In this document: one piece after another, positions 12,723 to 57,074 of the stretch | Layout: every line of letters begins with the position of its first letter | Numbering within the stretch: the stretch's first letter is position 1 | DNA from: an uncultured Clostridiaceae bacterium | GTDB taxonomy: Bacteria; Bacillota; Clostridia; Lutisporales; Lutisporaceae | Reading direction: 5' to 3' | DNA: 60,916 nucleotides | Assembly (NCBI GenBank): GCA_964619815.1 | Contig: CAZUGK010000001.1 | Coordinates: 22,878 to 83,793, forward strand | Translations under genes and position numbers: made by a program | Notes under the pieces: generated by a model | What the model saw: only the letters and a program-made list of their open reading frames with translations | What the model was told of the DNA's origin: nothing | Databases searched by the model: none

Positions 12723-12748
12723 TTTAAAGCGCTTTTACAGGAGGAAAC

Positions 12749-14679: not shown

Positions 14680-14680
14680 T

Positions 14681-15562: not shown

Positions 15563-15573
15563 TAATAGTCTTT

Positions 15574-15610
15574 AAGGTAACAGTTAAAAGCTGTTACCTT
15601 CTTAGTTTTT
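15574..15610 (+). terminator. Rho-independent terminator after secF
   Basis: AAGGTAACAG (15574-15583) / CTGTTACCTT (15591-15600), perfect 10-bp stem, T-rich tail. Confidence 0.75.
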
Positions 15611-15701
15611 GGCACAATAAAATTGTTGAAGTATAGACTAAAAAGCTTTATATTAGTATTGTTAGGGTTGACTGTTAAATAAAAGTGCGGGAGGGTTTAA
15701 T

Positions 15702-16052: not shown

Positions 16053-16078
16053 TTTATAGATAGGCATGTGATGGAATA

Positions 16079-17821
16079 TTGAACAAAAGATGGACAGCTT
16101 ATGACAAAAGTATGGAAAATCTTGAATCAATCATAAATGAATTTCAAATATCCGAGATAGTAGCCAGGGCGATGGTTAACAGAGGCATAAATACAGTACC
16201 GAAAGTAAGGGTATTCCTTAATACGGATTTGGATTCACTCTATGACCCATATCTCTTGGCAGGGATGGAGAAGTCTGTAGATAGAATACTGGAGGCCGTA
16301 AAATGCAAAGAAATAATATGCGTCTATGGAGATTATGATGTAGATGGGATTACCTCTACTGCAGTAATGGTAAGAACGCTGAAGAAGCTTGGTGCTAATG
16401 CGGTGTATTATATACCCAACAGGATTGAAGAGGGCTATGGCCTGAGTATAAGCTCCATGGACAGGATAAAGGAGCTTGGAGCGAAGCTTATTGTTACGGT
16501 GGATTGCGGGATCAGGTCCAATGAGGTAGTTGATTATGCAAAGAGCTTGGGAATGGAAATAATAATAACGGACCATCATGAGTGCGAAGGTGAACTGCCT
16601 AAGGCATACAGCATCGTAAATCCGCATCAATACAGCTGCAGCTATTCCCACAAAAACCTGGCGGGTGTCGGAGTTGCATATAAACTGGCATGTGCTTTAC
16701 TTGGAAAAGAAGGTATAGATGATTTTGCAGAGGAACTTATAGATATTGTTTCGATAGGGACAATAGCTGATGTTGTGCCTCTCCTGGATGAAAACCGCAT
16801 AATAGTGAAAAATGGCCTTAAGAAAATACAAAACACAGAGAACGAGGGCATAAAAGCTCTGCTTTCGGTATCCGGGCTAAGCGGTAAGGAGCTTAGTGCA
16901 TACAACGTAGCTTTTGTGCTCGCTCCAAGGATAAATGCAGCAGGCAGGATTGCAGATGCGGCCGAATGCGTTGAGCTTTTGCTGACCGATAATCCAGGTA
17001 AGGCTATGGATATAGCAAGGAAGCTGGATTCAGACAACCGGGAGCGCCAGGCAATAGAAAATGATATACTGAACAAAGCAATTACGATAATTGAAAAGAC
17101 AGTAGATGTTGAAAATGCCAGGGTGCTGGTGCTGAGCAGCGAGAGTTGGCATATAGGTGTTATAGGCATTGTGGCTTCGCGGCTGGTAGATAAATACTAT
17201 CTTCCAACCTTCATAATGTCAAGGGATGGGGAGCTTTGTAAAGGCTCTGCAAGAAGCATCCCGGGCTTTAATATATTCGAAGCAATGTCCAAGTACAGCA
17301 ATCTGTTTGAAAAGTATGGCGGACATGAAATGGCTGCAGGTTTTACAATAAAGGCCGATAGAGTAGACGAGCTTAGTAAATGTCTGAGCTTTGAAGCTGA
17401 GAGCGTATTGGGCAGGGATAAGCTCCTGCCTGAGATAATGGTAGACTATAAGCTTGAACCGGAGGATGTCACCCTGGAGACTGTAAGGCAGCTAAAGCTA
17501 TTGGAACCTTTTGGAACAGGCAATCCAAGCCCGATTTTTGTATACAGGGGACTTAAGGTAGTGTCCTCAAAAGCAGTGGGCAACGAGTCCAAACATCTTT
17601 CTCTGACAGCTTATGACGGCATTAATGAGATTAAATGTATTGCTTATAATTTAGGAAGTATGCAAAAAATGTTATCATCCGGTCAAAAAATTGATATAAT
17701 ATGTAATGTTGAGAACAATATCTGGAACAATGTTGAAACTGTGCAGTTGAACATAAAGGATATCAAAATAATAAATGGGGGTAGTACTTATGGATCTGGA
17801 AAAGTATATAAGAGCAATTGA
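16079..17821 (+). CDS. recJ: Single-stranded-DNA-specific exonuclease RecJ
   Basis: DHH motifs ([24 protein letters not shown]), DHHA1 GGHEMAAG and a C-terminal OB-like region. Start codon uncertain (TTG 16079). Confidence 0.9.
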
Positions 17822-18302
17822 AGGTTTCCCGAAGGAAGGCGTAAACTTTAAGGATGTGACGACGCTTTTGAAAGAGGGAGATGCTTTCAAATATGCTGTG
17901 AAATCCATTGCGGATAAGCTAAGGGACCTTAATGTAGATTTGGTTGTGGGACCGGAAGCGAGAGGCTTCATATTCGGAGCACCTGTAGCTTATGAGCTTG
18001 GTGTGGGCTTTGTTCCGGTAAGGAAACCAGGCAAGCTCCCGGCAGAAACAGTACGGTACGAGTATGAACTGGAATATGGGAAGGACGCACTTGAGATCCA
18101 CAGGGATGCAATAAAAAAAGGTGCAAGAGTAGCCTTGGTAGACGATTTGCTTGCAACCGGGGGTACTATCCTTTCAGCAGCTAAGCTGGTAGAGCAGCTT
18201 GGAGGAGAAGTGGTGCATATTGGCTTCCTTATTGAACTGGAATTCTTAAATGGAAGGAATAATCTTAAGGACTATGATGTAAGCTCAATTATCAAATATT
18301 AA
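17790..18302 (+). CDS. apt: Adenine phosphoribosyltransferase
   Basis: [24 protein letters not shown]...[12 protein letters not shown]...[16 protein letters not shown] 17790 overlaps the recJ 3' end. Confidence 0.93.
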
Positions 18303-18384
18303 GGTCAGAGCATAATATATGCAGTATATAAAATATTATATTTGATAAATAAGTACAAATATACTAAAATAGATTTAATAGTTT

Positions 18385-18408
18385 AAAGCTGGTGCTACCA
18401 GCTTTTTT
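18385..18408 (+). terminator. Rho-independent terminator after apt
   Basis: AAAGCTGGT (18385-18393) / ACCAGCTTT (18397-18405), 3-nt loop, T-run. Confidence 0.85.
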
Positions 18409-18547
18409 AGTAGTATAATCCGTTAAGCGGAATCTCTTTTTACTTTTTTAATCAAGATTCCGAAAAACGTTTTCCTGATCGTTATTGAATTCGCAGTATA
18501 CCCCGATATTTGCAGTCAAATACACATTCTAAAAGTTGGTGTTGTTT

Positions 18548-20716
18548 ATGTTACAGGATTTAATGAACATAATTAAAAAGTATAACCCTAACAACGATGC
18601 TGAGATCGTTGAAAGGGCTTATAACTATGCAGTAAAAGCCCATGACGGACAAAAGAGGGTTTCGGGAGAGGACTATATTATCCATCCGGTTGAAGTGGCG
18701 AAAATACTTGCAGAGCTGAACATGGACAATGTCACAATTGCTGCGGGAATACTGCATGACGTTGTGGAAGATACAAAATGCACTTTGGAAGACTGTAAGA
18801 ATCTTTTTGGCGAAGAGATAGCCATGCTCGTAGACGGTGTGACCAAGTTGGGAAAGCTGGAATACAAGACTAAAGAAGAGCAGCAGGCAGAAAGTCTTAG
18901 AAAAATGTTCATTGCTATGGCGAAGGATATAAGAGTAATACTTATTAAGCTTGCTGACAGGCTGCACAACATGCGTACTCTCAAATACATGCCGCCTGAG
19001 AAACAGAAGGAAAAGGCCAAAGAGACCATAGAAATTTATGCTCCGATTGCCCACAGGCTGGGAATATCAAAGATAAAGTGGGAAATGGAGGACCTTGCAT
19101 TAAGATACCTTGAGCCTAAAGAATATTATGAACTTGTGGACAAGGTAGCTAAAAAGAGAAAAGAACGTGAGGATGAAATTAATCATGTTATCGAAATCCT
19201 GAAGGTAAAGTTCAAGGAGGTAGGAATAGAAGCCCATATTGAAGGAAGGCCGAAGAGCTTCTACAGCATTTACAGGAAAATGTACTACCAGAACAAGAGC
19301 TTTGAACAGATATTTGACCTTACAGCAGTAAGGATAATTGTGGATACAGTAAAGGATTGCTATGGAGTACTTGGCATAGTTCACACTCTGTGGAAGCCCA
19401 TACCGGGAAGATTCAAGGATTATATAGCAATGCCGAAGCCGAATATGTACCAGTCGCTGCATACGACTCTGCTCGGCTCCGACGGGCAGCCCTTTGAAGT
19501 GCAGATAAGAACCTGGGATATGCATAAAACCTCTGAAATAGGTATAGCTGCTCATTGGAAGTACAAGGAAGGCAAGACATCCCAGACGGAATTCGATGAA
19601 AAACTGAAGTGGCTGAGGCAAATGCTCGAATGGCAGAATGAGATAAAAGATACCAGGGAATTCATGGAAACCTTGAAGGTTGATTTATTTACCGATGAAG
19701 TATATGTATTCACTCCAAAGGGTGATGTGGTTGACTTGCCGGTAGAGTCAACCCCAGTAGATTTTGCATATAAGATACACAGCCAGATAGGAAACAGGTG
19801 CATAGGGGCGAAAATAAACGGAAGAATAGTAACCCTGGATTATAAGCTCCAGAACGGGGATATCGTAGAAGTAATCACTTCAGCTGTAGCTAATGGCCCA
19901 AGCCGTGACTGGCTGAAAATAGTAAAGAGCTCACAGGCTAAGAATAAGATAAGACAGTGGTTTAAGAAAGAAAAAAGAGAAGAGAATATTCAAAAGGGAA
20001 AAGAACTGCTTGAAAAAGAAATACGGCGACATGGATATACTGCGGCACAGCTTTTGAAGCCTGAATGGCTGGAAACCATCTATAGGAGGTTAAGCCTGCA
20101 CACTGTGGATGATTTGTATTCATCTCTTGGATATGGAGGCTTGACGCCCAATCAGATAATAACAAAGCTGAAGGAAGAGTTCAGAAAAACTCAGAAGCTT
20201 GAAGAGCGGGAAGAGGAAAGCATTGAGCGCCAGGTGGAAAAATCTCAGGAAAGAAGGGAAAGGCATAACAGCACCGGTGTCAAGGTCAAAGGCGTGGATA
20301 ATATTATGATAAGATTTTCCAAATGCTGCAATCCTGTACCCGGTGATGAAATAATAGGATATATTACTAAAGGCAGAGGAGTGTCTGTACATCAAAAGGA
20401 TTGCCCGAATGTAGTAGATCTTATGAATGAAGAAGAAAGGCTCATAGAGGTTGAATGGAATACCCAGACCAAGGTGTCCTATAACGCGGATGTAGAAGTA
20501 AGGGCAACTGACAGAAAGGGACTTCTTGCAGAAATAACCACCATAATAGATGAAAGCAAAGTTAATATTAATTCCTTCCATTCAAGAACAACAAAAGACA
20601 AGGTAGCAATTATAAATTTTATATTAGAAATAACAGATATTGAACAGCTAAACAAGCTGATAAGAAAATTCAGGAAAATAGAAGGCGTAATGGACGTATT
20701 CAGGGCGAAGCAATAA
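18548..20716 (+). CDS. relA: Bifunctional (p)ppGpp synthetase/hydrolase RelA/SpoT homologue
   Basis: HD hydrolase motif (HPVEVA...GILHDVVEDT), synthetase domain (RPKSFYSIYRKM...DLTAVRIIV...YQSLHTT...EVQIRT), plus TGS and ACT domains. Confidence 0.93.
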   Translation: MLQDLMNIIKKYNPNNDAEIVERAYNYAVKAHDGQKRVSGEDYIIHPVEVAKILAELNMDNVTIAAGILHDVVEDTKCTLEDCKNLFGEEIAMLVDGVTKLGKLEYKTKEEQQAESLRKMFIAMAKDIRVILIKLADRLHNMRTLKYMPPEKQKEKAKETIEIYAPIAHRLGISKIKWEMEDLALRYLEPKEYYELVDKVAKKRKEREDEINHVIEILKVKFKEVGIEAHIEGRPKSFYSIYRKMYYQNKSFEQIFDLTAVRIIVDTVKDCYGVLGIVHTLWKPIPGRFKDYIAMPKPNMYQSLHTTLLGSDGQPFEVQIRTWDMHKTSEIGIAAHWKYKEGKTSQTEFDEKLKWLRQMLEWQNEIKDTREFMETLKVDLFTDEVYVFTPKGDVVDLPVESTPVDFAYKIHSQIGNRCIGAKINGRIVTLDYKLQNGDIVEVITSAVANGPSRDWLKIVKSSQAKNKIRQWFKKEKREENIQKGKELLEKEIRRHGYTAAQLLKPEWLETIYRRLSLHTVDDLYSSLGYGGLTPNQIITKLKEEFRKTQKLEEREEESIERQVEKSQERRERHNSTGVKVKGVDNIMIRFSKCCNPVPGDEIIGYITKGRGVSVHQKDCPNVVDLMNEEERLIEVEWNTQTKVSYNADVEVRATDRKGLLAEITTIIDESKVNINSFHSRTTKDKVAIINFILEITDIEQLNKLIRKFRKIEGVMDVFRAKQ

Positions 20717-45525: not shown

Positions 45526-47103
45526 CTACTTAAAGAATTCTCCTATCTTTTTAAACAGGCTGTTATATTTGTATGGTGCATTGCTATCCTCGTCTACTAC
45601 CTCCCCGGCAATCTGTGAGGTCTTTTTTCCCGAACCTGAAAATGCCTGCTTTCCATTTCCTGCTGTCTCAATATTTGCTTCATTTTCCTTGGAGAGCTCA
45701 CCGGATGCTGCATTGACGCCAGGCCTGCCTACGTAGGTAGTTATATGCTCCTGATTTAACAACAGAGTTTCATAATTAGGTAGCTTTTCACTTTTCATGA
45801 ATTTTTCCTTGAAATTGCTTTTTTTAAGCGGTGCCATATCCAAGATGCCATTTAAAGCAGGCTTTGGCTTTGCCGGGAAGAGTTCTTTCATCTCTGCCTC
45901 AGGAGCTTTCTGAACAAAGGTTTTGCTCTCAAGGTTATCAATCCGGCTATTCAATAGTTGGACATTCTCTGACAGACCTTTTATTTCATTAAGAATCTGT
46001 TTCAAATAGTCATTCATTTCAGTTGAAACCTCAGCCTGGGGCTTTTCTTTCTGTTTATCCTCTGCGGCAATTTTTGTTGTATGCTCCAGGGGTCTTAATA
46101 TATTGTAATCCTTGTCAAGTATGAAGTATCCTTTTGATATTGCAATAGAGCCTGTATTTCGTATGCATTTGATCACTCGTATATTGGTTTCTGCTGTTAT
46201 AGGCAGATCAATAGCTTTTTTCCATTTGCCGGAGGAATCCTCAAGGGTGTACTGATGAAAGACATAGTCTTTTATCCATGCAAGCTGCAGGGATTTATCA
46301 TCGGCGTAGAACAAGGGTATTACGCCACCGGTATCAACAAGAGAATTGTTCAGTTCCTTAAAATCTATTTCACTGCTTCCTGAAGACTTGCTCAAGAAAT
46401 GATGAATATTGCTTGCTTCACTTTCATTGGAAAAACTGAGCAGGTTAATTTTCTTATTATGGCTTATAAGTTTAATGGATACCTGGTTTTTGTAAGAAAT
46501 GTTCAGGCTCTTGTGAATCCATGACTTGATTGAGTCATCGAAACAATAATAGTTAATATAGTATAGGGTTCCGTCATACCAAACACTTGCGTAATGTATG
46601 CTGCCGCCTTTTAAGGGAAGTATGGAAAAAGAGCTTTCAATATTCTGCGAGTATATTTCAGATAAGCTGTTCTTTCTCCAGGAATACTCTATATAAGGAA
46701 CTTGCTCGTTAATATTCTTGTGGATGTGATATACGTTGTACATATTGGCGACAGGCAGCTTTTTTGAAAAAAATATATGTATGGAGCCGTTCTGTACTAC
46801 CATATCCATAATATATATATTGGCGCTGTTGTGTTGATTTACAACAGCTTCAAATTTCCAGCCGGAATTGGTATATATAAAAAGCAGAATCCCCTTGTAC
46901 CTGCTGCTGCAAGCAAGATAAACCGCATCATCTGTGTCAATAGCTGCTGCGAAGTCGGCATTGGCCTGGCTTATGAGTATGGTATCCTTTGTATCTCCGG
47001 CGCCGGAAACCTCTCTGTAATATATGGAGGTATCCTTGTAATAGAACAAATACTTGCTGCCTTTAGAATCCTCCAGTATTATTGATGGCTTTATATCTAT
47101 CAT
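45526..47103 (-). CDS. Hypothetical 525-aa protein (beta-rich N-terminal ~340 aa, coiled-coil, low-complexity tail)
   Basis: Good RBS (GGGTGGTG) before ATG. No signal peptide or TM. Central coiled-coil NDYLKQILNEIKGLSENVQLLNSRIDNLESK. No family recognised. Confidence 0.6.
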   Translation of the reverse strand: MIDIKPSIILEDSKGSKYLFYYKDTSIYYREVSGAGDTKDTILISQANADFAAAIDTDDAVYLACSSRYKGILLFIYTNSGWKFEAVVNQHNSANIYIMDMVVQNGSIHIFFSKKLPVANMYNVYHIHKNINEQVPYIEYSWRKNSLSEIYSQNIESSFSILPLKGGSIHYASVWYDGTLYYINYYCFDDSIKSWIHKSLNISYKNQVSIKLISHNKKINLLSFSNESEASNIHHFLSKSSGSSEIDFKELNNSLVDTGGVIPLFYADDKSLQLAWIKDYVFHQYTLEDSSGKWKKAIDLPITAETNIRVIKCIRNTGSIAISKGYFILDKDYNILRPLEHTTKIAAEDKQKEKPQAEVSTEMNDYLKQILNEIKGLSENVQLLNSRIDNLESKTFVQKAPEAEMKELFPAKPKPALNGILDMAPLKKSNFKEKFMKSEKLPNYETLLLNQEHITTYVGRPGVNAASGELSKENEANIETAGNGKQAFSGSGKKTSQIAGEVVDEDSNAPYKYNSLFKKIGEFFK

Positions 47104-47212
47104 GCAATCACCACCCTATAGTTTTTCGCATTATATATAATATATGGGTTTGTTCATGGGTATATGATAGTGATTGATTTTGTAAATTATAAATTTTTAT
47201 ATTAACTTGGTC

Positions 47213-47240
47213 ACAAAAATAACAGCAAATCCATATTATA
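47213..47240 (+). promoter_or_regulatory. Sigma-K-like (late mother-cell) promoter candidate
   Basis: AC (47213-47214), 17 nt, CATATTATA (47232-47240) fits AC-N16/17-CATANNNTA. About 40 nt upstream of ATG 47283. Confidence 0.35.
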
Positions 47241-47282
47241 AAATAGGCAGCAAAGTAATTAATATATTAGGAAGGTGAGATT

Positions 47283-48047
47283 ATGCAAAACAGTAATATT
47301 ACATTACCAACTGTATTATGTGCAGGAACTACCAAGGTAGAAGTTAATGTAGGCGGAAGAACTGAAAGTAAAGATTTGATATTTGAGTGCATAAAGGTAA
47401 AGAAGGTATTTGACGAATTTGTATTAAGAGATTGTGTTGAAGGCATTAAGTTCAAGGTGTGCGGGGATCCACACGGAGGAGAAATAGTACCGTCCTTGAT
47501 ACTTAGAAACTGCAAGCTTAGCAATGTAGAAATCAAGGATGTATCTTCCAACACGGAAAAAAGGCTCAAGTTCTCGGCAAAGTGCTGCTGTGATGTATTT
47601 GGAAAGGATGAAAGAGGACACATTATAAGGCTCGAGGTGCTTGATGTACCTGAGGGTACTAATCTGTCAGAGGGACCCGGCGGAGAACTTTGCTTTACCT
47701 TCAGTGTGAGAAGAACTTATACCAATGTAACAGAGGAAAACTTTGAAAGATTGCTGCATTTCCTTGATCAGGAAAGATTTGAGCTACAGTGCCTCGGGGA
47801 AGCAATGATTGACGAGGATAATAATAGAACTACCGGTGAAATACTGATTACAAACCTGGGCGCATTCATAGCAATTAAATTTGATGCGGAAGTTCAGCTT
47901 TGTGTTCCTGTGTTGGGCTACTGCGCAATAGAGGAAGATGTTGCACCTATAGAAGTAAACTTCTGCGAAGAGTTTGAATTTGAGGATGTTCCCTCCTTTA
48001 ACCCTCCGCAGCTAGGAATGCCTATTCCTCCATATACAACCGGTTAA
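47283..48047 (+). CDS. Hypothetical Cys-rich 254-aa protein (possible spore coat/exosporium component)
   Basis: RBS AGGAAGGTGAG. 13 Cys including a CCC triplet, an acidic C-terminus, and no signal peptide or TM. No family recognised. Confidence 0.6.
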   Translation: MQNSNITLPTVLCAGTTKVEVNVGGRTESKDLIFECIKVKKVFDEFVLRDCVEGIKFKVCGDPHGGEIVPSLILRNCKLSNVEIKDVSSNTEKRLKFSAKCCCDVFGKDERGHIIRLEVLDVPEGTNLSEGPGGELCFTFSVRRTYTNVTEENFERLLHFLDQERFELQCLGEAMIDEDNNRTTGEILITNLGAFIAIKFDAEVQLCVPVLGYCAIEEDVAPIEVNFCEEFEFEDVPSFNPPQLGMPIPPYTTG

Positions 48048-48056
48048 CAGCCTGCT

Positions 48057-48257
48057 ATGATTAATGGGGATATGAAAATAAAGGAAATCATAAGAAGATA
48101 TCCGTGTGCAAAAAGAGTGTTGAAGCACTATGATTTGCTCTCGGCAGGCTGCAGCTGAGCAGGGTGTCCGGATAGGACACTCAGGCAGGCTGCCGAGTCG
48201 AGAGGAGTCGAATTGAATAAGTTAATGAAATTATTGAATAACAAGATCAAGGGCTAG
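48057..48257 (+). CDS. DUF1858-type small redox-disulfide protein with in-frame TGA at 48156-48158 (candidate Sec codon, otherwise a pseudogene)
   Basis: Not in the ORF track. ATG 48057 gives MINGDMKIKEIIRRYPCAKRVLKHYDLLSAGCS, then TGA, then in the same frame AGCPDRTLRQAAESRGVELNKLMKLLNNKIKG and TAG 48255. Hairpin GGGTGTCC-GGATA-GGACACTC at 48162-48182. Confidence 0.55.
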
Positions 48258-48373
48258 TATTCTCACTGGCCTTGGTCTTTTTTTGCACAATTCAAGTAAC
48301 TTGTCACAGCAGAAAAGCATATTGTGAAATTGAGAGTAGGTTGAATAGCTCGGAGAAGGAGGCAGTACACCAT

Positions 48374-49327
48374 ATGACACACTATTACTACACAGTTGCA
48401 AGCAAGGAATATACTTATAAAATATTGCTCCTGTATAATTCTTTGATGAGGTATGATAAGTCCTTCAAGTTTTTTATAGTCTGCCTGCAAAGTGAAAGCA
48501 TTAAAATTTTCAAGGACCTGGGCCTTCAAAATGCAGTGCTGATAGATATTGAGGCTTTGGAGGCTTATGACGGGGAGCTTGCCGCAGTAAAGCATAAAAG
48601 AAGTCTTAAGCAGTATGCATGGGCTGCAAAGCCTGTTGCGGCTTTATATATACTGGAGCATTACAATGAGGTGGATCAAATAATATGGCTTGATGGAGAC
48701 ACATTGTTCCTATCTTCACCGGAGCAAATTTACGAGGAGTGGGCGGACTATTCCGTACTGCTTACCGAAGAGAAATTTACCGGAAAATACGCTAATATAA
48801 GCAGCATATATGGTTACTTCAATACAGGGTTTATGGGATTCAAACGAGATGAAAATTCAAAGGAGTGTCTGAGATACTTCAGAGATAAGCTGCTTCATGA
48901 ATGGAATTATGAAGAAAAGGAGCAGTACAGGTGGAACGACCAGCTTTATGTAAGTGATTGGGATAAGAGATTTACAAATATAGGAATTGTAAAGAATCCG
49001 GGTATTAACCTTACCCCTTTTATTTTTAACAGGCTGATAGAGGAATGGAACGGTGTGCTGAACAGAAAAGACGGACAGCTTTATATCGGTGACAATATAA
49101 TAGTGCTTTATCATTTCTATGGTTTTATAAACTTTAATGACAGAGAATTTGATTTGTGCCGGTACACAAACATTTACCACAGACCCCAAATACAGCATAT
49201 CTACCTGCCATATATAAAAGAAGCAGTAAATATAAATAATAAATTAATAGCATTGGATAAAGACTTCTGCATCACACATCCGGTAGAAGGCATCTATATA
49301 AATAATTACTACAAACTCTCAGATTAG
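48374..49327 (+). CDS. GT-A-fold glycosyltransferase-like protein (one copy of the locus-specific domain)
   Basis: ATG 48374 lies after GGAGAAGGAGG. WLDGDT (DxD), YAWAAKP, NTGFMGFKRD. Paralogous to 49378, 50340 and 54676. Soluble. Confidence 0.68.
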   Translation: MTHYYYTVASKEYTYKILLLYNSLMRYDKSFKFFIVCLQSESIKIFKDLGLQNAVLIDIEALEAYDGELAAVKHKRSLKQYAWAAKPVAALYILEHYNEVDQIIWLDGDTLFLSSPEQIYEEWADYSVLLTEEKFTGKYANISSIYGYFNTGFMGFKRDENSKECLRYFRDKLLHEWNYEEKEQYRWNDQLYVSDWDKRFTNIGIVKNPGINLTPFIFNRLIEEWNGVLNRKDGQLYIGDNIIVLYHFYGFINFNDREFDLCRYTNIYHRPQIQHIYLPYIKEAVNINNKLIALDKDFCITHPVEGIYINNYYKLSD

Positions 49328-49377
49328 GCATCAATAAAGAAATAGCAGTAAATTAACACCACAAGGGGGTATTCCTA

Positions 49378-51285
49378 TTGAGCCATAATTACTATTCTAT
49401 AGCCAGCAAGTATTATGCATATAAAGTGTTGGCATTGTATAAATCAATACAAAAATACGATACGGATTTTCGTTTTTTTTTCATATGTTTAAATGAGGAA
49501 GTGAAAGAACTTTTCAGTGCGATGGGTCTGGAAAAAGCAAGCGTTATAAGCATTGACAATATTGAAGCCAGTGATCGGGAGCTTCTTGAGGTGAAAAGCA
49601 GCAGAAATGAGAAGGAGTATGCCTGGACAATAAAACCATCTGTAATGCTATATCTGCTTGAAACCTATCCGGAATTGGACCATATTATATGGCTGGATGG
49701 AGATACGGCTTTTTTGTCTGATCCTCAGACGATATATGATGAATGGGGTGACTATTCCATATTGCTTACTGAAGAGAAGTACTCCGGCAAATTTGATTAC
49801 ATGAGCCGGTATTTCGGGGTGTATAATACAGGATTTTTAGGCTTCAAGAGGGATGATAATGCTATAGAATGCTTGAACTGGCTGAGGAAAAAGGTTATTG
49901 AGTGGTGCTATGACAGACATGAGAAAGGCTTATGGAGTGACCAAATGCATTACAATAATATTCCGAACTTATTCAGCAATGTGGGAGTTATTAAGAATTC
50001 GGGTATAAATATGACCCCCTTTATACTCAGAAGGCTGCTGGACGAAGAGGGGGATGACGTTAAGGAAAGCTCCGGCAATATATTTGTCAATGCTTCCAAA
50101 GTAGTTTTTTTCCACTATTACGGCTTCAAATTTTATAATGAGTCAGAATTTGACCTGTGTTTTTATAAGAATTGGAAATTCCCGGGGAAAGTTATCAAAA
50201 CTATTTATATGCCTTATATAGAGTTGTGCGGTGAAGCAATTGCTCTTATAAATGAACATAATGACAGCTTTTATTATCCGGAAAAACCTGATTTTAATTA
50301 TATAGCATACTATTACTCTATCGGCAAAAGGAACAATATTAATTCTTATAATTTTTGCACTATTGTTACCGGTGAATACTTGCCGAAGGTTTTGGCACTG
50401 TACCTTTCATTAAAGAGGCATGCGGAAAGCTTTCATCTATGGATTTGCTGCATGGATGGCTTAGTATACGATGTACTAAACAAACTCAAGCTTTCAAATG
50501 TTACCTTGATAAAACTTGAAAACATCGAGGACAACGAATTGCTTTCGGTCAAAGACTGCAGGTACACTCATGAATATTGCTGGACCCTCAAGGCCCCCTT
50601 AATTCTATACCTGTTTAAATGCTATAAAGATATTGATTCGCTATTTTATATAGATTCGGATACTTACCTTTTTTCCAGCCCTGAGAAATTATTTGCCCGG
50701 TTGAAAAGCTATTCGGTTCTGCTGACAATGCACAATTTCAACAATGATTTTAAATCACTGTATACCCAAAAAGGCTGGTATAATGCGGGAATCATAGGGT
50801 TCCGGAGAGATTCAAATGCATTAAACTGCCTTAACTGGTGGCGTGACAGTTGTATAGAATGGTGCTACGACAAAATTGAAGATGGTAAATTCGGTGATCA
50901 AAAATATCTGATGCACTTTCGAAAAAGGTTTGATGGAGTATATAGGGAGAGAATGGTAGGAGCTAATGCTGCAATGTGGAATTTTAAAGAGCACAGTATC
51001 AGGGAATATCAAGGAAAGGTTCAGATTAATGAAAAGGAACTTATATTCTATCATTTCAGTGCCTTTCTTATATGCAGTGAGTGGGAATATGGCATGTGGA
51101 GGTGGTATTATCCGGAGGTGGATGAAAATGCCAAAAGGCTTATTTACCTTCCCTATGCCAAAGATCTGTATAATGCTATCCAAATGATAAAACAAGTATA
51201 TGAATATGTACACACATATTTCTATGATCTATCTGCCGTGGAGAATTCTAAAAACCTGATAAATATTAAGGATTTCAGTGAATGA
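49378..51285 (+). CDS. Two-domain GT-A-fold glycosyltransferase-like protein (tandem fusion of the same domain)
   Basis: 635 aa. The N-terminal half (WLDGDT, EYAWTIKP, NTGFLGFKRDDN) and the C-terminal half (YIDSDT, EYCWTLKAP, NAGIIGFRRDSN) are colinear paralogues. Confidence 0.68.
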   Translation: MSHNYYSIASKYYAYKVLALYKSIQKYDTDFRFFFICLNEEVKELFSAMGLEKASVISIDNIEASDRELLEVKSSRNEKEYAWTIKPSVMLYLLETYPELDHIIWLDGDTAFLSDPQTIYDEWGDYSILLTEEKYSGKFDYMSRYFGVYNTGFLGFKRDDNAIECLNWLRKKVIEWCYDRHEKGLWSDQMHYNNIPNLFSNVGVIKNSGINMTPFILRRLLDEEGDDVKESSGNIFVNASKVVFFHYYGFKFYNESEFDLCFYKNWKFPGKVIKTIYMPYIELCGEAIALINEHNDSFYYPEKPDFNYIAYYYSIGKRNNINSYNFCTIVTGEYLPKVLALYLSLKRHAESFHLWICCMDGLVYDVLNKLKLSNVTLIKLENIEDNELLSVKDCRYTHEYCWTLKAPLILYLFKCYKDIDSLFYIDSDTYLFSSPEKLFARLKSYSVLLTMHNFNNDFKSLYTQKGWYNAGIIGFRRDSNALNCLNWWRDSCIEWCYDKIEDGKFGDQKYLMHFRKRFDGVYRERMVGANAAMWNFKEHSIREYQGKVQINEKELIFYHFSAFLICSEWEYGMWRWYYPEVDENAKRLIYLPYAKDLYNAIQMIKQVYEYVHTYFYDLSAVENSKNLINIKDFSE

Positions 51286-51307
51286 AATATCATTTTTGGA
51301 GGCAGTT

Positions 51308-52276
51308 ATGGAAAGTTTGTCTTTTGGTAAAAAGAAGGTCATTATTACCGGAGCGAATGGTTTTATTGGTTCACATATGACTATGAGAATGTTTAAGGAG
51401 GAAGCACGCATCTATGTTACGGTCCGGGAATTATCGGACCTGTGGAGACTGGATAAGGTGCAGAAGGACATTGAAATATGCAAGCTGGATTTAAGAGACA
51501 ACGGAGAAGTAGAGAAGCATATAAGGAGAATAAAGCCTGATTATATATTTCATATGGCGGCTTATGGAGTTGACTCAAGGCAGAAGGACTATATCACCGC
51601 AGCAGAAACAAATATTATTGGAACAATAAATCTGCTTAACGCGGCCATTGCTGCCGACTGCGGGAAATTTATAAATACAGGCACCAGTATGCAATATGGC
51701 AATAAGACTATGCCAATAAAAGAAACAGAGTATTATTCACCCTCTAATATATATGGAAGCTCCAAGGCGGCAGCAACAATAATTGCACATCAGATAGCTG
51801 CAGAAAACGGTATTGACATAGCCACCATAATACCCTTCGGTGTTTTTGGAGAAAACGAGGGAAGCCATAAGTTCTTCCCCCACGTTATTTTATCTGTGCT
51901 GGGGGAGAAAAGTATTGAGCTGTCACCCTGTGAGCAATATAGGGATTATTGCTATATAGAGAATGTTATCGATGGGTTTTTAATGGCTGCGGCCAATGAA
52001 AAGATAAAAAATGAAATATTTAATATAGGAAGCGGAGATTTATATCAGCTTAAGTATTATGTTAATTTGATTGTTGAAAAAATGGGCTGCAAGAGCAATA
52101 TAAAATATGGGTCAGTTGAATACAGAAAAAACGATTTGTGGAGCCCACAGCCGGATATAAGCAAAATAACCGGGGTGATGGGGTGGAGTCCGAGAATATG
52201 CCTTTCTGAAGGTATTGACAAAACCATTGAATGGTTCAGGGAAAACTACGACAAATACAGCGTAAGGGGGAGATAG
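51308..52276 (+). CDS. NAD-dependent epimerase/dehydratase (extended SDR)
   Basis: ATG 51308 lies after GGAGG. TGANGFIGSH Rossmann motif and YGSSKAAA catalytic YxxxK. Confidence 0.8.
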   Translation: MESLSFGKKKVIITGANGFIGSHMTMRMFKEEARIYVTVRELSDLWRLDKVQKDIEICKLDLRDNGEVEKHIRRIKPDYIFHMAAYGVDSRQKDYITAAETNIIGTINLLNAAIAADCGKFINTGTSMQYGNKTMPIKETEYYSPSNIYGSSKAAATIIAHQIAAENGIDIATIIPFGVFGENEGSHKFFPHVILSVLGEKSIELSPCEQYRDYCYIENVIDGFLMAAANEKIKNEIFNIGSGDLYQLKYYVNLIVEKMGCKSNIKYGSVEYRKNDLWSPQPDISKITGVMGWSPRICLSEGIDKTIEWFRENYDKYSVRGR

Positions 52277-52279
52277 AAG

Positions 52280-53344
52280 TTGAGCTGCAATAAAATAATC
52301 AATGAGGATGTAAAAAATATTTACCTTGACATTGGAGGTGCATTGAAGACTATTGAAGGCAGCAGTTTTCTAATTAGCGGAGGCAGCGGTTTTTTGGGCT
52401 CGTATTTCATGGATGTGATCGATTTTTGCAATTCAAACATATTTATGGAGCCGGTAACCGTAATATGTGTCGACAACTTCATAACAGGTATCCCGGACAG
52501 GATTAAGCATCTTATGGATAACGAAAATTTCATTTTAATGGACGCAGATGTTTCAAAGCCATTGGAAATCAATTGCAGTGTTGATTATATCATACATGCA
52601 GCGAGCATAGCTTCACCAACCTACTATAGGAAGCATCCGATAAAAACAATAGAGACCAATGTGCTTGGTCTGACAAATCTTCTGGATCTGGGTATGAGAA
52701 AAAATATGAAAAGCTTCCTGAATCTCTCCAGCAGTGAGATTTATGGTGACCCGGATGAAGCACACATACCCACAAGTGAGGATTACAACGGAAATGTTTC
52801 CTGTACAGGGCCAAGGGCTTGCTATGATGAATCCAAGCGCCTGGGTGAAACCCTGTGTGTTAATTACTTCAGAGAATATGGAGTGCCGGTAAAGGTAGCG
52901 AGGCCCTTCAATGTTTATGGCCCGGGCTTGAAACTGAATGACCGGAGGGTAATACCTGATTTTTTTAATGATGCGATTAAAAGGCATAAAATTGTAATAT
53001 TCAGTGACGGTTCTCCTACAAGAAGCTTTTGTTATGTGAGCGATGCAATAAAGGGCTTCCTGCTGGCATTACTGTCAGAGTTCAATGGAGAGGCATTTAA
53101 TATAGGAAATGACCAGACAGAGATAAGCATGATGGGTTTAGGGGAAATTATTGCAGAAATAGTGGGGAACGTAGATATTGAGCTGAATAAAAGCGAAGAG
53201 AAGGAATATCTGACGGATAATCCCAAAAGAAGGTGCCCTGATTTGACGAAGGCAAAGACTTTCTTGAACTATTACCCGAAGGTGGAGCTTAAAACAGGCC
53301 TTGAGAGGATTTTTCAATGGTATATCCATAACAATAATTTATAG
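52280..53344 (+). CDS. UDP-glucuronate decarboxylase-like SDR (UXS/ArnA C-terminal type)
   Basis: GGSGFLGSYF, SSSEIYGDP, EDYNGNVSCTGPRACYDESKRLGETLC (compare UXS CYDEGKR), RPFNVYGP. Confidence 0.78.
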   Translation: MSCNKIINEDVKNIYLDIGGALKTIEGSSFLISGGSGFLGSYFMDVIDFCNSNIFMEPVTVICVDNFITGIPDRIKHLMDNENFILMDADVSKPLEINCSVDYIIHAASIASPTYYRKHPIKTIETNVLGLTNLLDLGMRKNMKSFLNLSSSEIYGDPDEAHIPTSEDYNGNVSCTGPRACYDESKRLGETLCVNYFREYGVPVKVARPFNVYGPGLKLNDRRVIPDFFNDAIKRHKIVIFSDGSPTRSFCYVSDAIKGFLLALLSEFNGEAFNIGNDQTEISMMGLGEIIAEIVGNVDIELNKSEEKEYLTDNPKRRCPDLTKAKTFLNYYPKVELKTGLERIFQWYIHNNNL

Positions 53345-53358
53345 CTAGGAAGGTTTTT

Positions 53359-53763
53359 ATGGCAAACAAATATGAAATAATTAAAATGAATCCTTATAGG
53401 GATAGACGGGGTGAGCTTAAGAAGGTATTTGTAAAATCAATGCTGGCCGCGGAAAGGACTATTGAAGAAATATATGTACTGTATACTAATAAAGGCTCTG
53501 TACGAGGCAATCACTATCACAAGCAAAATGTAGAATTTTTTACTGTACTGAAGGGGACTGCTGTAATAGCACTCAAGGATGTTGGGGGGGGAGAAGCTGA
53601 GACGCTTAAAGTGTCGGCAGGAGACAATATTGTAGTTAAAGTCCCGGAGAATGTTGCACACGGGTTCAGAAACGATGAGGATGAAGACCTTGTGATACTT
53701 GCAGCCGCGACAAAGCTATATGACCCTGAGGATACCGATACTTTCAACTATTTGTTGCTCTAA
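53359..53763 (+). CDS. Cupin-fold sugar-nucleotide epimerase/isomerase-like protein (RmlC/WxcM/FdtA-related)
   Basis: 134 aa. RGELKKVF...VRGNHYHK...VAHGFRN, a small-barrel cupin with His residues. Confidence 0.5.
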   Translation: MANKYEIIKMNPYRDRRGELKKVFVKSMLAAERTIEEIYVLYTNKGSVRGNHYHKQNVEFFTVLKGTAVIALKDVGGGEAETLKVSAGDNIVVKVPENVAHGFRNDEDEDLVILAAATKLYDPEDTDTFNYLLL

Positions 53764-53769
53764 CACTGG

Positions 53770-53804
53770 AGATTCAATACTTAATTTGTATTGAATCTTT
53801 TTTG
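53770..53804 (+). terminator. Rho-independent terminator inside the sugar locus
   Basis: AGATTCAATAC (53770-53780) / GTATTGAATCT (53788-53798), followed by T6. Confidence 0.85.
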
Positions 53805-53888
53805 TATTTAAACAGCTGGTAAGGTGACAAAGCTATACAGCTTTGCATAACTTGAAGTAGGACAAATCGCAGAAAGAGGGGCGATACT

Positions 53889-54653
53889 TTGAAGGTAGTG
53901 ATACTTTGCGGCGGATACGGTATGAGGATGAGGGAGATTACTGGAAATACCCCCAAGCCTCTTGCCTTAGTGGGAGGTAAACCGATACTTTGGCATATAA
54001 TGAAGCTTTACAGCAAGTATGGTTTTGATGATTTCATACTTCCCTTAGGCTACATGGGAGATAAAATAAAGGAATACTTTATGAACTATGATTGGAAGCA
54101 GAATGATTTCATACTGGACTTCAGGGATAATGAGAACAAAATATACCTTTTGAAGAAACCGGAAAAATGGAGGATAACCTTTATAGATACCGGTGAGGAT
54201 ACAATGACGGGAGGGCGTATAAAAAGGATACAGTCTTTTATTGAGGATGATACCTTCCTTATGACCTATGGAGACGGCCTTAGTGATGTCAATATCAGCG
54301 AGTTGTTGAAATACCATAGGGAAAAGGGGAAAATTGCCACTCTTACGAGCATACAAAAAAAGAGCCAGTATGGAATATTAAAGGCTCAGGACGGACTTGC
54401 AACATCCTTTGGAGAAAAAACAGAGATAGAGGGCATGATAAACGGAGGTTTCTTCGCATTTAACAGAGCAATTTTTGATTATCTAAATAATGATCAGTGT
54501 GTTCTTGAAAGGGAGCCGCTGATAAAGCTTGCTTCGGGGGGGCAGCTTGCGGTATATGAGCACAAAGGCTTCTGGCAGGCCATAGATACTGTTAAGGATT
54601 TGCAGGATATGAATACAAACTGGGAGGCCATAGAAAGTATCTTGGGAATATAA
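53889..54653 (+). CDS. rfbF: Glucose-1-phosphate cytidylyltransferase
   Basis: MKVVILCGGYGMRMRE...PKPLALVGGKPILWHIMK.Y..YG..DFIL.LGY and TGGRIKR, strongly RfbF-like. TTG start. Confidence 0.88.
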   Translation: MKVVILCGGYGMRMREITGNTPKPLALVGGKPILWHIMKLYSKYGFDDFILPLGYMGDKIKEYFMNYDWKQNDFILDFRDNENKIYLLKKPEKWRITFIDTGEDTMTGGRIKRIQSFIEDDTFLMTYGDGLSDVNISELLKYHREKGKIATLTSIQKKSQYGILKAQDGLATSFGEKTEIEGMINGGFFAFNRAIFDYLNNDQCVLEREPLIKLASGGQLAVYEHKGFWQAIDTVKDLQDMNTNWEAIESILGI

Positions 54654-54675
54654 TTGATAAAGACGGTGATTAACA

Positions 54676-55524
54676 GTGAAAGTATTGTTTTGCACAATAG
54701 CATCGAAATACAGGCTGCACCAATGTGTCGCACTGTACCATTCACTGAAGCGCTTCATGCCGGAGGCAGCTTTGGTTGTCCTTGCGGTCGACGGGGAGTC
54801 CCATAAAGTGCTTGATGCTTTGAAGCTGCCTGAGGTTACGGTTATATCCGCCGAACAACTGGAGGATGCTAAATTAAAAGAGTTGAAGGAGCAAAGAAAT
54901 TCAAGCGAATATTGCTGGACCCTGAAGCCTGTATTACTGCTTCATCTATATGAGAACTACAAGGACTACAGCATTTTTGTCTATCTTGATTCAGACCTTC
55001 TTTTTTTCGACAGCCCTTTAAAGCTTTTCAGTGGCGGAGGAAATTGGTCTGTGCTACTGACAACTCATAAGGTCAACAGAAAGGCTAATGGAGGCTTTGT
55101 AGCTTTTAAGCGATGCACTTATGCTCATGAAGCATTGAAATGGTGGAAGGACAGTTGTTTGGAGTGGTGTTATTCTCATAACGACAACAGAAGGTTTGGC
55201 GACCAGGGTTATCTGGATTTAATGCGAGACAGGTTCAAGGGAGTTACATACCTTGATATGCCCGGAGCAAATGTGGCTACCTGGAATTACTTTAAATACG
55301 ATCTGGAATTAAAAAATGGAAACATATTTGTAGACAGAAACCGGCTGGTTTTCTTCCACTTCAGCGGATTCCGGATGAAGAGGCAAGAGAGCTCTGTAAT
55401 AATATACGGAGCTGAAATCCCATGTGTTGTATGTGGTGCCTATAAAAGCGCAATTACAAATGCTATAAAAGAAATCGAAGCAATAGACAAAGAAATCACG
55501 GAATATTTTTATTCAGGAATATAA
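54676..55524 (+). CDS. GT-A-fold glycosyltransferase-like protein (fourth copy of the locus-specific domain)
   Basis: YLDSDL (DxD), EYCWTLKP, WWKDSCLEWCY and RFGDQGYLD are shared with the C-terminal half of 49378..51285. Confidence 0.68.
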   Translation: MKVLFCTIASKYRLHQCVALYHSLKRFMPEAALVVLAVDGESHKVLDALKLPEVTVISAEQLEDAKLKELKEQRNSSEYCWTLKPVLLLHLYENYKDYSIFVYLDSDLLFFDSPLKLFSGGGNWSVLLTTHKVNRKANGGFVAFKRCTYAHEALKWWKDSCLEWCYSHNDNRRFGDQGYLDLMRDRFKGVTYLDMPGANVATWNYFKYDLELKNGNIFVDRNRLVFFHFSGFRMKRQESSVIIYGAEIPCVVCGAYKSAITNAIKEIEAIDKEITEYFYSGI

Positions 55525-55537
55525 GGAGTTGCAAAAA

Positions 55538-56893
55538 ATGCGGATTTCAATAATCGGAACGGGTTATGTAGGACTGGTAAGCGGGGTCTGCCTTGCCGTA
55601 AAGGGTCATGAAGTAATATGCGTAGATAGCCGGGAAGACATAGTTGAGAGAATAAACCGTTCTGAAGCGACAATATATGAGCCTTATCTATCGGACCAGC
55701 TTAAGGAAGCAGCTGCTGCAGGAAGGCTTTCGGCGACTGCGGATTTGGAATATGCGGTTGAAAACAGTGATATATCCATTATTGCAGTAGGCACTCCATA
55801 TATGGGTGACAGTATTGACCTTAGCTATATAGAAAAGGTTTCGAGGGATATAGGAAGGCTGCTGGGGAAAAAAGAGACTTATCATGTTGTATGTATAAAA
55901 AGTACGGTGATACCTGCTACTACAGATACGTTTGTAAAAAACATAATTGAAGATGAATCAGGAAAAAAGGCCGGAGAGTTCGGACTTGTTATGAATCCTG
56001 AGTTTTTGCGGGAGGGAGAAGCGGTTACTGACTTTATGAATCCCGACAGGATAGTAATAGGAGCATATGATGATAGGAGCTTCAACCTGTTCAGGCAGGT
56101 ATACGAAGGATATTTTGAAGCACCGATTACAAGGGTGAGCCCAAGAACTGCGGAATTTATAAAATATGCTTCCAATTCACTTCTGGCTATGCTTATTTCA
56201 TATTCCAATGAAATAGCAGCAATATCGGAAGCAGTAGGAGGCATGGATGTTGAAGAGGTACTTTATGGAGTATCGCTGGATAAAAGAATTAGTCCGAAAA
56301 TCGACGGGAAATTAATCAGGCCGGACATAATTAAATACCTGAAAGCCGGGCGCGGCTACGGCGGGAGCTGTTTTCCGAAGGATGTGAAGGCACTGGTTGC
56401 ATTTTCAGAGAAGAAAGGGTATGTGCCCATGCTTTTAAAGGCCACTGCAGAAATAAATGAAAGACAGGTTGACAAGATTGCAGGCAGAATAGAAGCAGAA
56501 TTAGGTACTTTAGAGCATCGGAAAATAATGATGCTGGGCCTTGCCTTCAAGCAGAACAGCGATGACATAAGGGAATCACCTTCCATAAAGCTTGCCAGGC
56601 TTCTTGCGGGAGAAAAAGCATTTGTCTATGTTGCTGACCCCATGGCAATAGAAAACGCAAGAAAAGAACTTGGAGCCGCTAAGAATATTTTCTATTTGGA
56701 GGATATTAAAAATGAAGTTTCAAATTATGATGCCATTGTGCTTATGACACCCTGGCAGGAATATTTGGAGCTTCTAAGTGAAGGTGGGTATGAACCCTTA
56801 AAAAAAGCCATATTGTTTGATGGCTGCAGGGCACTGCAAAAGAATAAAATACTTGGGTCAGGCATAAAATATATAGGTATTGGCTTATCTTAA
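55538..56893 (+). CDS. ugd: UDP-glucose/GDP-mannose dehydrogenase family protein (probable UDP-glucose 6-dehydrogenase)
   Basis: MRISIIGTGYVGLVSG, NPEFLREG, GGSCFPKD (catalytic Cys) and a C-terminal UDP-binding domain. ATG 55538 lies after AAGGAG. Confidence 0.85.
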   Translation: MRISIIGTGYVGLVSGVCLAVKGHEVICVDSREDIVERINRSEATIYEPYLSDQLKEAAAAGRLSATADLEYAVENSDISIIAVGTPYMGDSIDLSYIEKVSRDIGRLLGKKETYHVVCIKSTVIPATTDTFVKNIIEDESGKKAGEFGLVMNPEFLREGEAVTDFMNPDRIVIGAYDDRSFNLFRQVYEGYFEAPITRVSPRTAEFIKYASNSLLAMLISYSNEIAAISEAVGGMDVEEVLYGVSLDKRISPKIDGKLIRPDIIKYLKAGRGYGGSCFPKDVKALVAFSEKKGYVPMLLKATAEINERQVDKIAGRIEAELGTLEHRKIMMLGLAFKQNSDDIRESPSIKLARLLAGEKAFVYVADPMAIENARKELGAAKNIFYLEDIKNEVSNYDAIVLMTPWQEYLELLSEGGYEPLKKAILFDGCRALQKNKILGSGIKYIGIGLS

Positions 56894-57050
56894 CACAAAT
56901 GTATTATACTGGAATTAAAAACAAACAGTATTAACACTTTAGTGACCTTTGCATAATATATATTATGAAATTAATTATATTAGCAGGTTAAAAATGAATA
57001 GCTGTTGCTTTCCAATATAGAAATATATGGGGAGGCAATTTATATAAAGA

Positions 57051-57074
57051 GGTGCGGCTTGGGCTGCACCTTTT
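57051..57074 (+). terminator. Probable terminator downstream of ugd
   Basis: GGTGCGGC (57051-57058) / GCTGCACC (57063-57070, one G-T pair), followed by TTTT. Confidence 0.5.

Follow-up and report, generated by a model that had tools for sequence, protein, structure and literature searches.

Background

The basal layer of the Clostridium sporogenes exosporium is formed by CsxA, a protein of 299 amino acids (aa) with 25 cysteines that self-assembles into a disulfide-linked hexagonal lattice (PMC4942563, PMC7333573). Its gene sits divergent to a highly conserved open reading frame (ORF) in a cluster that also has a glycosyltransferase and collagen-like proteins, and more distant relatives of csxA often stand together with glycosyltransferase genes (PMC7333573). 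We analysed a stretch of 60,916 nucleotides (nt), here called the window, from an uncultured Clostridiaceae bacterium placed by GTDB in the Lutisporaceae (assembly GCA_964619815.1, contig CAZUGK010000001.1, positions 22,878 to 83,793 of the forward strand). It holds a gene for a Cys-rich protein of probable CsxA kinship with a divergent partner gene, followed by genes for nucleotide-sugar enzymes and glycosyltransferases. These genes probably constitute a mother-cell, lipid-carrier-independent glycan cassette, the products of which would be added to an exosporium or outer spore layer of the CsxA type. Spore-surface glycosylation had been proposed in a sequence-only reading of the window, and it is now supported by the kinship to CsxA, by conserved sigma-K-type promoters, by a spoIVA context in relatives and by the lack of an exporter.

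The layout of csxA and divergent partner reported in PMC7333573 was found here as well. Alike in both loci are a Cys-rich protein, here a probable member of the CsxA family, the divergent conserved ORF, the presence of glycosyltransferase gene(s) and a strain-variable content (PMC4942563, PMC7333573). The differences are considerable. The Cys-rich protein of the window is a remote homologue of CsxA, with 254 aa and 13 Cys against 299 aa and 25 Cys. The C. sporogenes cluster has collagen-like genes, whereas genes for BclA or BclB were not found here. In place of one glycosyltransferase there are four GT8-like domains together with a UDP-glucose 6-dehydrogenase (Ugd), a UDP-glucuronate decarboxylase (UDP-xylose synthase, UXS), a glucose-1-phosphate cytidylyltransferase (RfbF), a further short-chain dehydrogenase/reductase (SDR) and a cupin. 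Unlike in C. sporogenes, the csxA-like gene shares its predicted transcription unit with a selenocysteine DUF1858 gene, and the genomic site is rarA/iscR instead of zapA/U32 peptidase. The combination of a Cys-rich protein, a small redox protein and glycosyltransferases had been taken for an undescribed module. This was correct in part: csxA clusters with glycosyltransferases are published (PMC7333573), but the GT8/xylose chemistry, the want of a collagen-like acceptor and the co-transcribed selenocysteine DUF1858 gene are new.

Spore glycosylation without an exporter is best known from Bacillus subtilis. There the sps, yfn and ytc genes are under the control of sigma-K, and their products work in the cytoplasm of the mother cell or on the coat (PMC4670728, PMC7439481), which makes the analogy drawn from the bare sequence an apt one. 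The loci spsA-L, yfnHGFED, ytdA-ytcABC and cgeAB/CDE share with the window sigma-K-type control, predicted here from promoter sequence, a nucleotidyltransferase, SDRs and soluble glycosyltransferases without an exporter; yfnH codes for an RfbF-type enzyme. The crust sugars of B. subtilis differ, being rhamnose, legionaminic acid and others, and neither CotX/Y/Z nor CgeA, the structural partners there, is related to CsxA. The crust glycosyltransferases of B. subtilis belong to the families GT2 or GT4 and are not GT8-like. In the cluster of B. anthracis/cereus (ExsY, BxpB, BclA, rhamnose genes) and at bclA3-sgtA of C. difficile, a Cys-rich lattice and glycosylation genes also stand together under mother-cell promoters, and CD3350 (family GT2) is sigma-K-dependent in C. 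difficile (PMC3789822). The acceptor in these systems is a collagen-like glycoprotein, of which none was found here, and the protein families are unrelated. A UDP-xylose/UDP-glucuronate branch has not been reported for the B. anthracis/cereus and C. difficile systems, and a search of the literature on exosporium and UDP-xylose yielded nothing relevant.

The CsxA-like protein

Ten genes on the + strand occupy 47283-56893, in agreement with the first description of the block. The first of them (47283-48047, +) encodes the 254-aa protein with 13 Cys, a candidate exosporium basal-layer subunit. It had no Pfam or NCBIfam match, the Pfam copy searched being one without PF27077. Its homologues form 87 clusters with 50-100% identity, all from uncultured Clostridia and Lutispora. 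An orthologue with 84% identity (P0012) carries the precomputed Pfam label PF27077 (CsxA), and the same label is borne by a 273-aa protein of Marinisporobacter that lies in the same locus layout. Pairwise BLAST revealed an N-terminal C(I/V)K(V/I)xKV(F/Y)D..LR(D/E)C motif and a C-terminal block in common (E 3e-5). Aligned by hhalign, a profile of 60 members of the 254-aa family matched 19 PF27077 proteins with a probability of 96.4% and E 1.2e-9 over 62 C-terminal columns. A profile search in 1.84 billion representative proteins returned 30 matches, among them the PF27077 protein P0237 at E 2.2e-4; the remaining nameable matches came from spore-forming Clostridia only. Nine of the 13 Cys are invariant or at least 90% conserved among 60 homologues. 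In size and Cys content the protein shows the trait of the CsxA family, being Cys-rich, with 254 aa inside the range of ~250-300 aa, and without a recognisable signal peptide. These comparisons point to a distant member of the CsxA family, a remote homologue of the exosporium protein.

The AlphaFold2 (AF2) monomer of the protein is all-beta with a mean confidence (pLDDT) of 83.5. For CsxA, a SPOCS/DUF3794-type fold and a trimer have been proposed in a 2026 preprint (10.64898/2026.09.03.749163); a Pfam scan of 60 family members gave no match to DUF3794/SPOCS at E up to 1.

The divergent 525-aa partner

A scan of one genome per species yielded 34 loci, all from Lutisporaceae-like Clostridia, and in all 34 the csxA-like gene has a partner of 470-555 aa beside it on the opposite strand. 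In the window this is a 525-aa protein (45526-47103, -). Its N-terminal residues ~1-335 are predicted to form a beta-propeller; a coiled coil follows at 362-393, then a Lys/Gly/Ser tail that is disordered and, at the C-terminus, a helix that is conserved. Conserved motifs in the C-terminal part are LKKSNFKEKFMKS and KKIGEFFK. The protein has no Pfam or NCBIfam match and no membrane segment by hydropathy; hhalign related it with 96.2% to the partner gene product of Marinisporobacter. The propeller region was modelled by AF2 with a pLDDT of ~90. The best Foldseek matches were Photorhabdus PLL/PHL, AAL lectins and the GH145 protein BT3686 (E 4e-8, template-modelling (TM) score ~0.6), and PLL/PHL and AAL are fucose- or methyl-sugar-binding lectins. 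The resemblance of the modelled propeller to sugar-binding lectins and glycoside hydrolases is suggestive, with the caveat that propellers match one another readily. The protein could be a lectin-like anchor or an exosporium morphogenetic protein.

A probably co-transcribed DUF1858 selenoprotein

The second gene of the block (48057-48257, +) has 66 codons and encodes a DUF1858 protein (PF08984, 39.5 bits) if its in-frame TGA at 48156-48158 is read as selenocysteine (U). A hairpin resembling a selenocysteine insertion sequence (SECIS) is located at 48151-48193 and folds at -26.7 kcal/mol (z -4.18). The TGA is kept in 20 of 20 orthologues, inside GC(G/S)UGG, and tRNA-SeC is encoded in the genome. 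With its TGA kept at the redox motif, a hairpin of SECIS type and selenocysteine machinery in the form of tRNA-SeC, the gene shows what is expected of a DUF1858 selenoprotein. The U-x-x-C redox motif first assigned to it had to be given up, as the 20 orthologues conserve C-x-U (GCGUGG). A Cys after U (UAGC) occurs in this genome only, among the 20 orthologues. Selenoproteins of the DUF1858 type have already been catalogued, with a CxxU motif (PMC9312934). Among these orthologues the gene always lies directly 3' of the csxA-like gene. A constant pairing of a DUF1858 selenoprotein with a lattice protein was not reported in the literature searched.

Transcription units and promoters

The block had been regarded as a single unit. 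This view did not survive, since terminator-like hairpins split it into three transcription units. Unit A is a bicistron of the csxA-like gene and the DUF1858 gene and ends at a hairpin at 48250-48273 (+). Unit B comprises two glycosyltransferase genes, two SDR genes and the cupin gene, in the order GT1, GT2, SDR1, SDR2 and cupin (GT1 to GT3 denote the genes of the window; the enzyme families are always called family GT2 and so forth). It is closed by a hairpin of 13 pairs followed by a T run (53768-53800, +). Unit C contains rfbF, GT3 and ugd, with a hairpin at 57047-57074 (+), before iscR.

Each unit is preceded by a sigma-K-type promoter with an AC element, a spacer of 17 nt and a -10 element: CATATTATA in front of the csxA-like/DUF1858 bicistron (47213-47240, +), where such a match had been noted before and was found again, CATATTGT in front of unit B (48299-48325, +) and CATAACTT in front of unit C (53827-53853, +). 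In the relaxed form AC-N17-CATAnnnT, all three units have the motif at a distance of 40-75 nt upstream of their start. The window has 18 matches to this form against 8.0 expected, and none of 100 shuffles reached 18. The strict motif with N17 has six matches in the window versus 2.2 expected, a number reached by 4 of 100 shuffles, and with N16 spacing two versus 2.3 expected. Genome-wide, 30 sites of the strict motif were correctly placed upstream of genes, roughly the chance level. Taken alone, the strict motif says little, and its weight derives from where it stands and from its conservation. The argument for sigma-K is built on conservation and on the identity of the genes that bear the motif, not on counts.

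Conservation is pronounced at the csxA-like gene. A sigma-K-type motif was present in 30 of 31 orthologous upstream regions. When 27 distinct regions were aligned by their -10 element, TTcAC.AAAA and CATATTAT proved near-invariant and the spacer variable; such high-information -35 and -10 blocks around a low-information spacer are the classic footprint of a promoter. The same arrangement precedes csxA of Marinisporobacter. At unit B, L007, L008, L009 and L015 have kept the element AACTTGTCA...GCATAtnnTGAA, and equivalents of the unit C site are present in L015, L023, L019 and L017. Both units have an element (gt)cAC-N16/17-GCATAnnnTGAAtTAGA in common, in the relatives that possess an intergenic gap there, and it recurs in the spoIVA-linked module of Lutispora. 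Beyond the sigma-K consensus, the -10 word is extended to GCATAnnnTGAA(t)TAGA at 48315-48335 and 53843-53863 and in L007, L008, L009, L015, L023 and L039. This extended word of the glycan operons might be a transcription start region or the site of an additional regulator.

The genome encodes sigK (359 bits, above the cut-off). Two genes served as in-genome controls: a correctly placed strict motif precedes both tgl (NF002869, 346.5 bits, cut-off 307) and dpaA (NF006162, 283.4 bits, cut-off 261). In B. subtilis, where dpaA is spoVFA, the two belong to the sigma-K regulon. A correctly placed strict motif also precedes the gene of a kinase-like protein. It was further observed in front of genes for a mannose-1-phosphate guanylyltransferase (C22:54-1130, -), a 248-aa protein similar to family GT2 (C123:7085-7831, -) and a multicopper oxidase with a Cys/Asp-rich tail (C142:6152-7681, +). 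These last three are possible additional genes for spore-surface sugars or for the coat.

The 525-aa gene has a promoter of another type, with TCATATA, 14 nt and CATATATT at 47139-47167 (-), as expected for sigma-E. Twenty-two of its orthologues keep the pattern (t)CATA(t)A-N14/15-CCATATAwwT in their upstream regions. In C. difficile, an ATA in the -35 element marks sigma-E and an AC marks sigma-K (PMC3789822). On this distinction the 525-aa gene would be expressed early, under sigma-E, and the csxA-like gene and the glycan genes late, under sigma-K.

A point against sporulation control is that the site at 47213 is readable as a weak sigma-A promoter, GTCACA-18-TATTAT, with 9 of 12 positions. 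We rejected sigma-A as the principal reading of 47210-47239: the CA before TATTAT is invariant, the Lutispora subgroup would need a sigma-A spacing of 19 nt, and the -10 hexamers of units B and C fit sigma-A poorly.

Glycosyltransferases

The first reading of one GT-A-like domain present in four copies in three genes was correct. The four copies align over their full length with 29-46% identity, and the DxD motif is invariant. GT1 has a single GT8-like GT-A domain (48374-49327, +). Its ORF opens with TTG at 48272, and a strong ribosome-binding site GGAGAAGGAGG precedes the ATG at 48374, which is most likely the start and gives a protein of 317 aa. With 24.3 bits, GT1 scored exactly at the cut-off of Pfam GT8. 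GT2 is a tandem fusion of two such domains (49378-51285, +; 635 aa) and is the only one clearly above that cut-off (42.9 versus 24.3 bits, E 5.7e-11). GT3 again has a single domain (54676-55524, +; 282 aa); it obtained 21.1 bits with PF03407, the cut-off being 22, and its homologues are annotated as 'putative nucleotide-diphospho-sugar transferase'. A second GT8-like cluster is located on a 5.3-kb contig (C219:1-2907) beside an AI-2E-type permease gene. It has at least three domains, ~40-44% identical to GT1.

The nearest characterised relatives, retaining enzymes of the families GT8 or GT34, are glycogenin, the Skp1 galactosyltransferase and xyloglucan xylosyltransferases (E ~0.06-0.8). Glycogenin and the Skp1 alpha-galactosyltransferase have in common with the window's enzymes a soluble GT-A domain with DxD and act on protein-linked acceptors in the cytoplasm; the matches to the two are marginal (E 0.06-0.1). 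That the closest solved relatives are these cytoplasmic enzymes, at an E of only ~0.06-0.1, and that all proteins of the locus are predicted to be soluble would also suit a product that stays in the mother-cell cytoplasm, for example a protein-primed storage glucan as with glycogenin, a small molecule that carries sugars or a glycolipid, in place of a spore-surface glycan. We consider such a product very unlikely. The chemistry of UXS, Ugd and RfbF is typical of structural heteroglycans and not of storage glucans, biosynthetic genes for an aglycone are not found nearby, and the adjacency to CsxA-like or spoIVA genes recurs.

Nucleotide-sugar enzymes

Two extended SDRs, one of them UXS-like, had been recognized, and both assignments hold. 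SDR2 (52280-53344, +) was matched by phmmer to human UXS1 (2b69) with E 2.3e-67 and 231 bits, while the next SDR class reached at most 122 bits. Judged by its sequence, SDR2 is a genuine UXS. SDR1 (51278-52276, +) is of the epimerase or reductase type. Its best relatives in the PDB are UDP-hexose, UDP-GalNAc and UDP-GlcA 4-epimerases and a 4-keto reductase. The TDE is the catalytic motif region of 4,6-dehydratases; at this position SDR1 has GTSMQYG. As a candidate for the CDP-glucose 4,6-dehydratase SDR1 was rejected, as it lacks the Asp-Glu and scored 95.5 bits with TIGR02622 (cut-off 278). With SDR2 at 58.3 bits, the initial observation that the locus has no recognisable enzyme of this kind is upheld.

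The assignments of the cupin, RfbF and Ugd were confirmed by profile matches in Pfam and NCBIfam. The cupin (53359-53763, +) resembles the C-terminal part of CapF/WbjC (PF14667, 72.6 bits), matches positions 254-365 of NF047837 and is related to the C-terminal cupin of Cap5F (E 4e-8); it is probably a nucleotide-sugar 3- or 3,5-epimerase or an isomerase. RfbF (53889-54653, +) passes TIGR02623 marginally, with 300.6 bits against a cut-off of 300.25. Ugd (55529-56893, +) scored 390.8 bits with TIGR03026; the TuaD and AglM models gave ~355 bits, under their own cut-offs. The score of Ugd and the classification of SDR2 as UXS also bear out the predicted route from UDP-glucose (UDP-Glc) over UDP-glucuronate (UDP-GlcA) to UDP-xylose (UDP-Xyl), as far as enzyme families are concerned.

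The sugars made by SDR1, the cupin and RfbF we infer from these relationships. SDR1, SDR2 and the cupin co-occur in eight islands, and one possibility is a split CapF-like epimerase/reductase that acts on a UDP-pentose or a 4-keto intermediate. The CDP-glucose (CDP-Glc) from RfbF may be used as such.

Membrane proteins and exporters

A Kyte-Doolittle scan with 19 residues over the ten proteins gave a single value of at least 1.6, at the Rossmann N-terminus of Ugd, and the claim that none has a transmembrane segment is upheld as far as hydropathy predicts it. Likewise, an exporter, flippase, polymerase, priming transferase or other transmembrane protein was found neither in the block nor in its flanks, and the extra genes of ~14 related islands included no multi-pass membrane or exporter gene. 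The block does not have the composition of Wzx/Wzy- or ABC-transporter-dependent loci. It has that of the sps/yfn/ytc type, namely nucleotide-sugar enzymes and soluble glycosyltransferases without lipid-carrier machinery or exporter.

Soluble cytoplasmic glycosyltransferases can also be used by systems that glycosylate flagellin, pilin or S-layer proteins, as is generally known. Membership of the locus in such a system is extremely improbable, because a flagellin, pilin or S-layer gene was present neither in the flanks of the window nor in the 34 related loci and the promoters are of the sporulation type.

Distribution among relatives

The invariant core of the loci is rarA, the 525-aa gene (-) and the csxA-like gene (+), with the DUF1858 gene next in most of the loci that extend further (20 found). 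Downstream of the core, 14 loci have a glycosylation island of related but shuffled content and 13 continue straight into iscR; four loci end too early to judge the presence of an island. The island may be present or absent in genomes whose CsxA-like proteins are 83-84% identical (L007-L009 versus L011, L012). It is an accessory, variable insertion and not a fixed part of the CsxA module. Six of the 12 genomes without an island at this site have GT8-like genes elsewhere. In L001 (the same as L020), a complete genome, the interval 11271-19556 holds the gene of a 2761-aa protein and, after it, TriTu and RHS-repeat genes, and GT8-like genes are located ~20 kb off the slot (G011:C1:443857-447451).

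In Lutispora the whole module, with an SDR, a UXS-like SDR, a cupin, an NTP-transferase, Ugd and three glycosyltransferases, lies directly downstream of spoIVA. Marinisporobacter, a member of another family, has two pairs of CsxA-like protein and partner, then a glycosyltransferase of family GT4, an NTP-transferase, an SDR, two GT8-like genes and iscR. Further genes in several islands are small kinase-like and APH/CotS-like ones, one of the family GT2 type or a fusion of GT-D and family GT2 domains. At L005:9609-11801, L010:11941-14268 and L017:18832-20744, two ~195-aa kinase-like genes accompany one ~330-aa gene with an APH fold; they are absent from the island of the window. A membership of the kinase-like and APH genes in CotS was dismissed, the matches being weak and below the cut-off. 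In L016 a 110-aa ORF without family match (12749-13081, -) is situated inside the island, between an ABC-F ATPase gene and a gene of the family GT2 type.

In the window the locus is surrounded by housekeeping genes, DUF2207, lemA and rarA on the left and iscR-iscS-iscU-mnmA on the right. The bofC-like gene reported for the window was verified by a match to PF08955. The GC content is 0.38 at 46001-52000 and 0.40-0.45 in the rest of the window; horizontal exchange of the csxA/glycosyltransferase region would fit the lower value.

Several findings weigh against a glycan of the spore surface. The profile-profile match to CsxA is confined to the 62 C-terminal columns and a short N-terminal motif, the 254-aa protein has 13 Cys where CsxA has 25, and a fold search in the PDB with the AF2 model of the CsxA-like protein gave nothing significant (best E 0.012, TM <0.3). 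A collagen-like (BclA-type) acceptor was not found in six-frame scans of the draft genome, which is 93% complete and in 373 contigs, an assembly that may lack repeat genes. About half of the relatives do not have the island. No GT8-like gene at all was found in six of the 12 genomes without an island, which are metagenome-assembled genomes of unknown completeness. The slot between DUF1858 and iscR also holds unrelated cargo: in L001 it is occupied by the 2761-aa/RHS genes, and L016, L017 and L019 have an ABC-F ATPase there. The glycosyltransferase family occurs in non-spore-formers as well, inside ordinary polysaccharide loci.

Some of these findings favour another explanation, in which the genes are incidental cargo of a plasticity zone and provide sugars or side-chains for a cell-envelope polymer (a secondary cell-wall, teichuronic-like or capsule polymer), the priming transferase, flippase and polymerase being encoded elsewhere. 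Besides the unrelated cargo in the slot, it is favoured by the presence of the island in only 14 of ~28 informative loci, by the existence on contig C163 of a classical locus that includes a Bac_transf-like priming transferase, by distant homologues of GT3 in conventional polysaccharide loci of non-spore-formers and by the slightly lower GC content (0.38) over 46-52 kb. We nevertheless regard it as unlikely. Both glycosyltransferase operons have sigma-K-type and not sigma-A-type elements, which are kept in relatives, and sigma-70-like matches in the region are at chance (39 against 38.8 expected). The module stands beside sporulation genes in three independent contexts, and no version of the island contains a membrane protein.

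Proposed function

If the genes form a mother-cell glycan cassette, as we consider probable, the following course can be envisaged. The 525-aa protein, from a sigma-E-type gene, would act as an early mother-cell organiser or anchor. The sigma-K-type bicistron would then provide the CsxA-family lattice protein and the 66-residue selenocysteine DUF1858 redox protein. The two further sigma-K-type operons, inserted between the core and iscR, would be the glycan-building cassette. Therein Ugd would oxidise UDP-Glc to UDP-GlcA and UXS decarboxylate it to UDP-Xyl, SDR1 and the CapF-like cupin would probably epimerise or reduce UDP-GlcA, UDP-Xyl or a 4-keto intermediate, and RfbF would supply CDP-Glc. 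The four soluble GT8-like domains, presumably retaining enzymes, would add the sugars in the mother-cell cytoplasm to a spore-surface protein or to a growing glycan on the assembling exosporium or coat. A flippase, polymerase or exporter would not be needed in a cytoplasmic assembly.

A more specific proposal can be made, albeit with little confidence. The DUF1858 protein with its C-x-U motif might form or proof-read the disulfides of the lattice in the reducing cytoplasm of the mother cell, and the GT8-like, glycogenin-type glycosyltransferases might build a glycan of xylose, glucuronate and glucose directly on the lattice protein or on its lectin-like propeller partner. If true, a surface glycan would here be primed on protein, with neither a lipid carrier nor a collagen-like stalk protein.

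Implications

Glycans of exosporium and coat govern the adhesion, hydrophobicity and dispersal of spores, and their genetics are unknown outside a few Bacillus and Clostridium models. The CsxA-type layout of lattice protein and divergent partner is extended by the present locus to another order of Clostridia. The glycan cassette is O-antigen-like in being exchangeable, repeatedly lost and moving between sporulation-gene neighbourhoods. For a chemistry of UDP-Xyl, UDP-GlcA and CDP-Glc with GT8-like enzymes, we found no report on spores. The extensive disulfide cross-links of CsxA have to form inside the mother cell, and the linkage of the DUF1858 gene to the lattice gene is a candidate answer to how this may be achieved.

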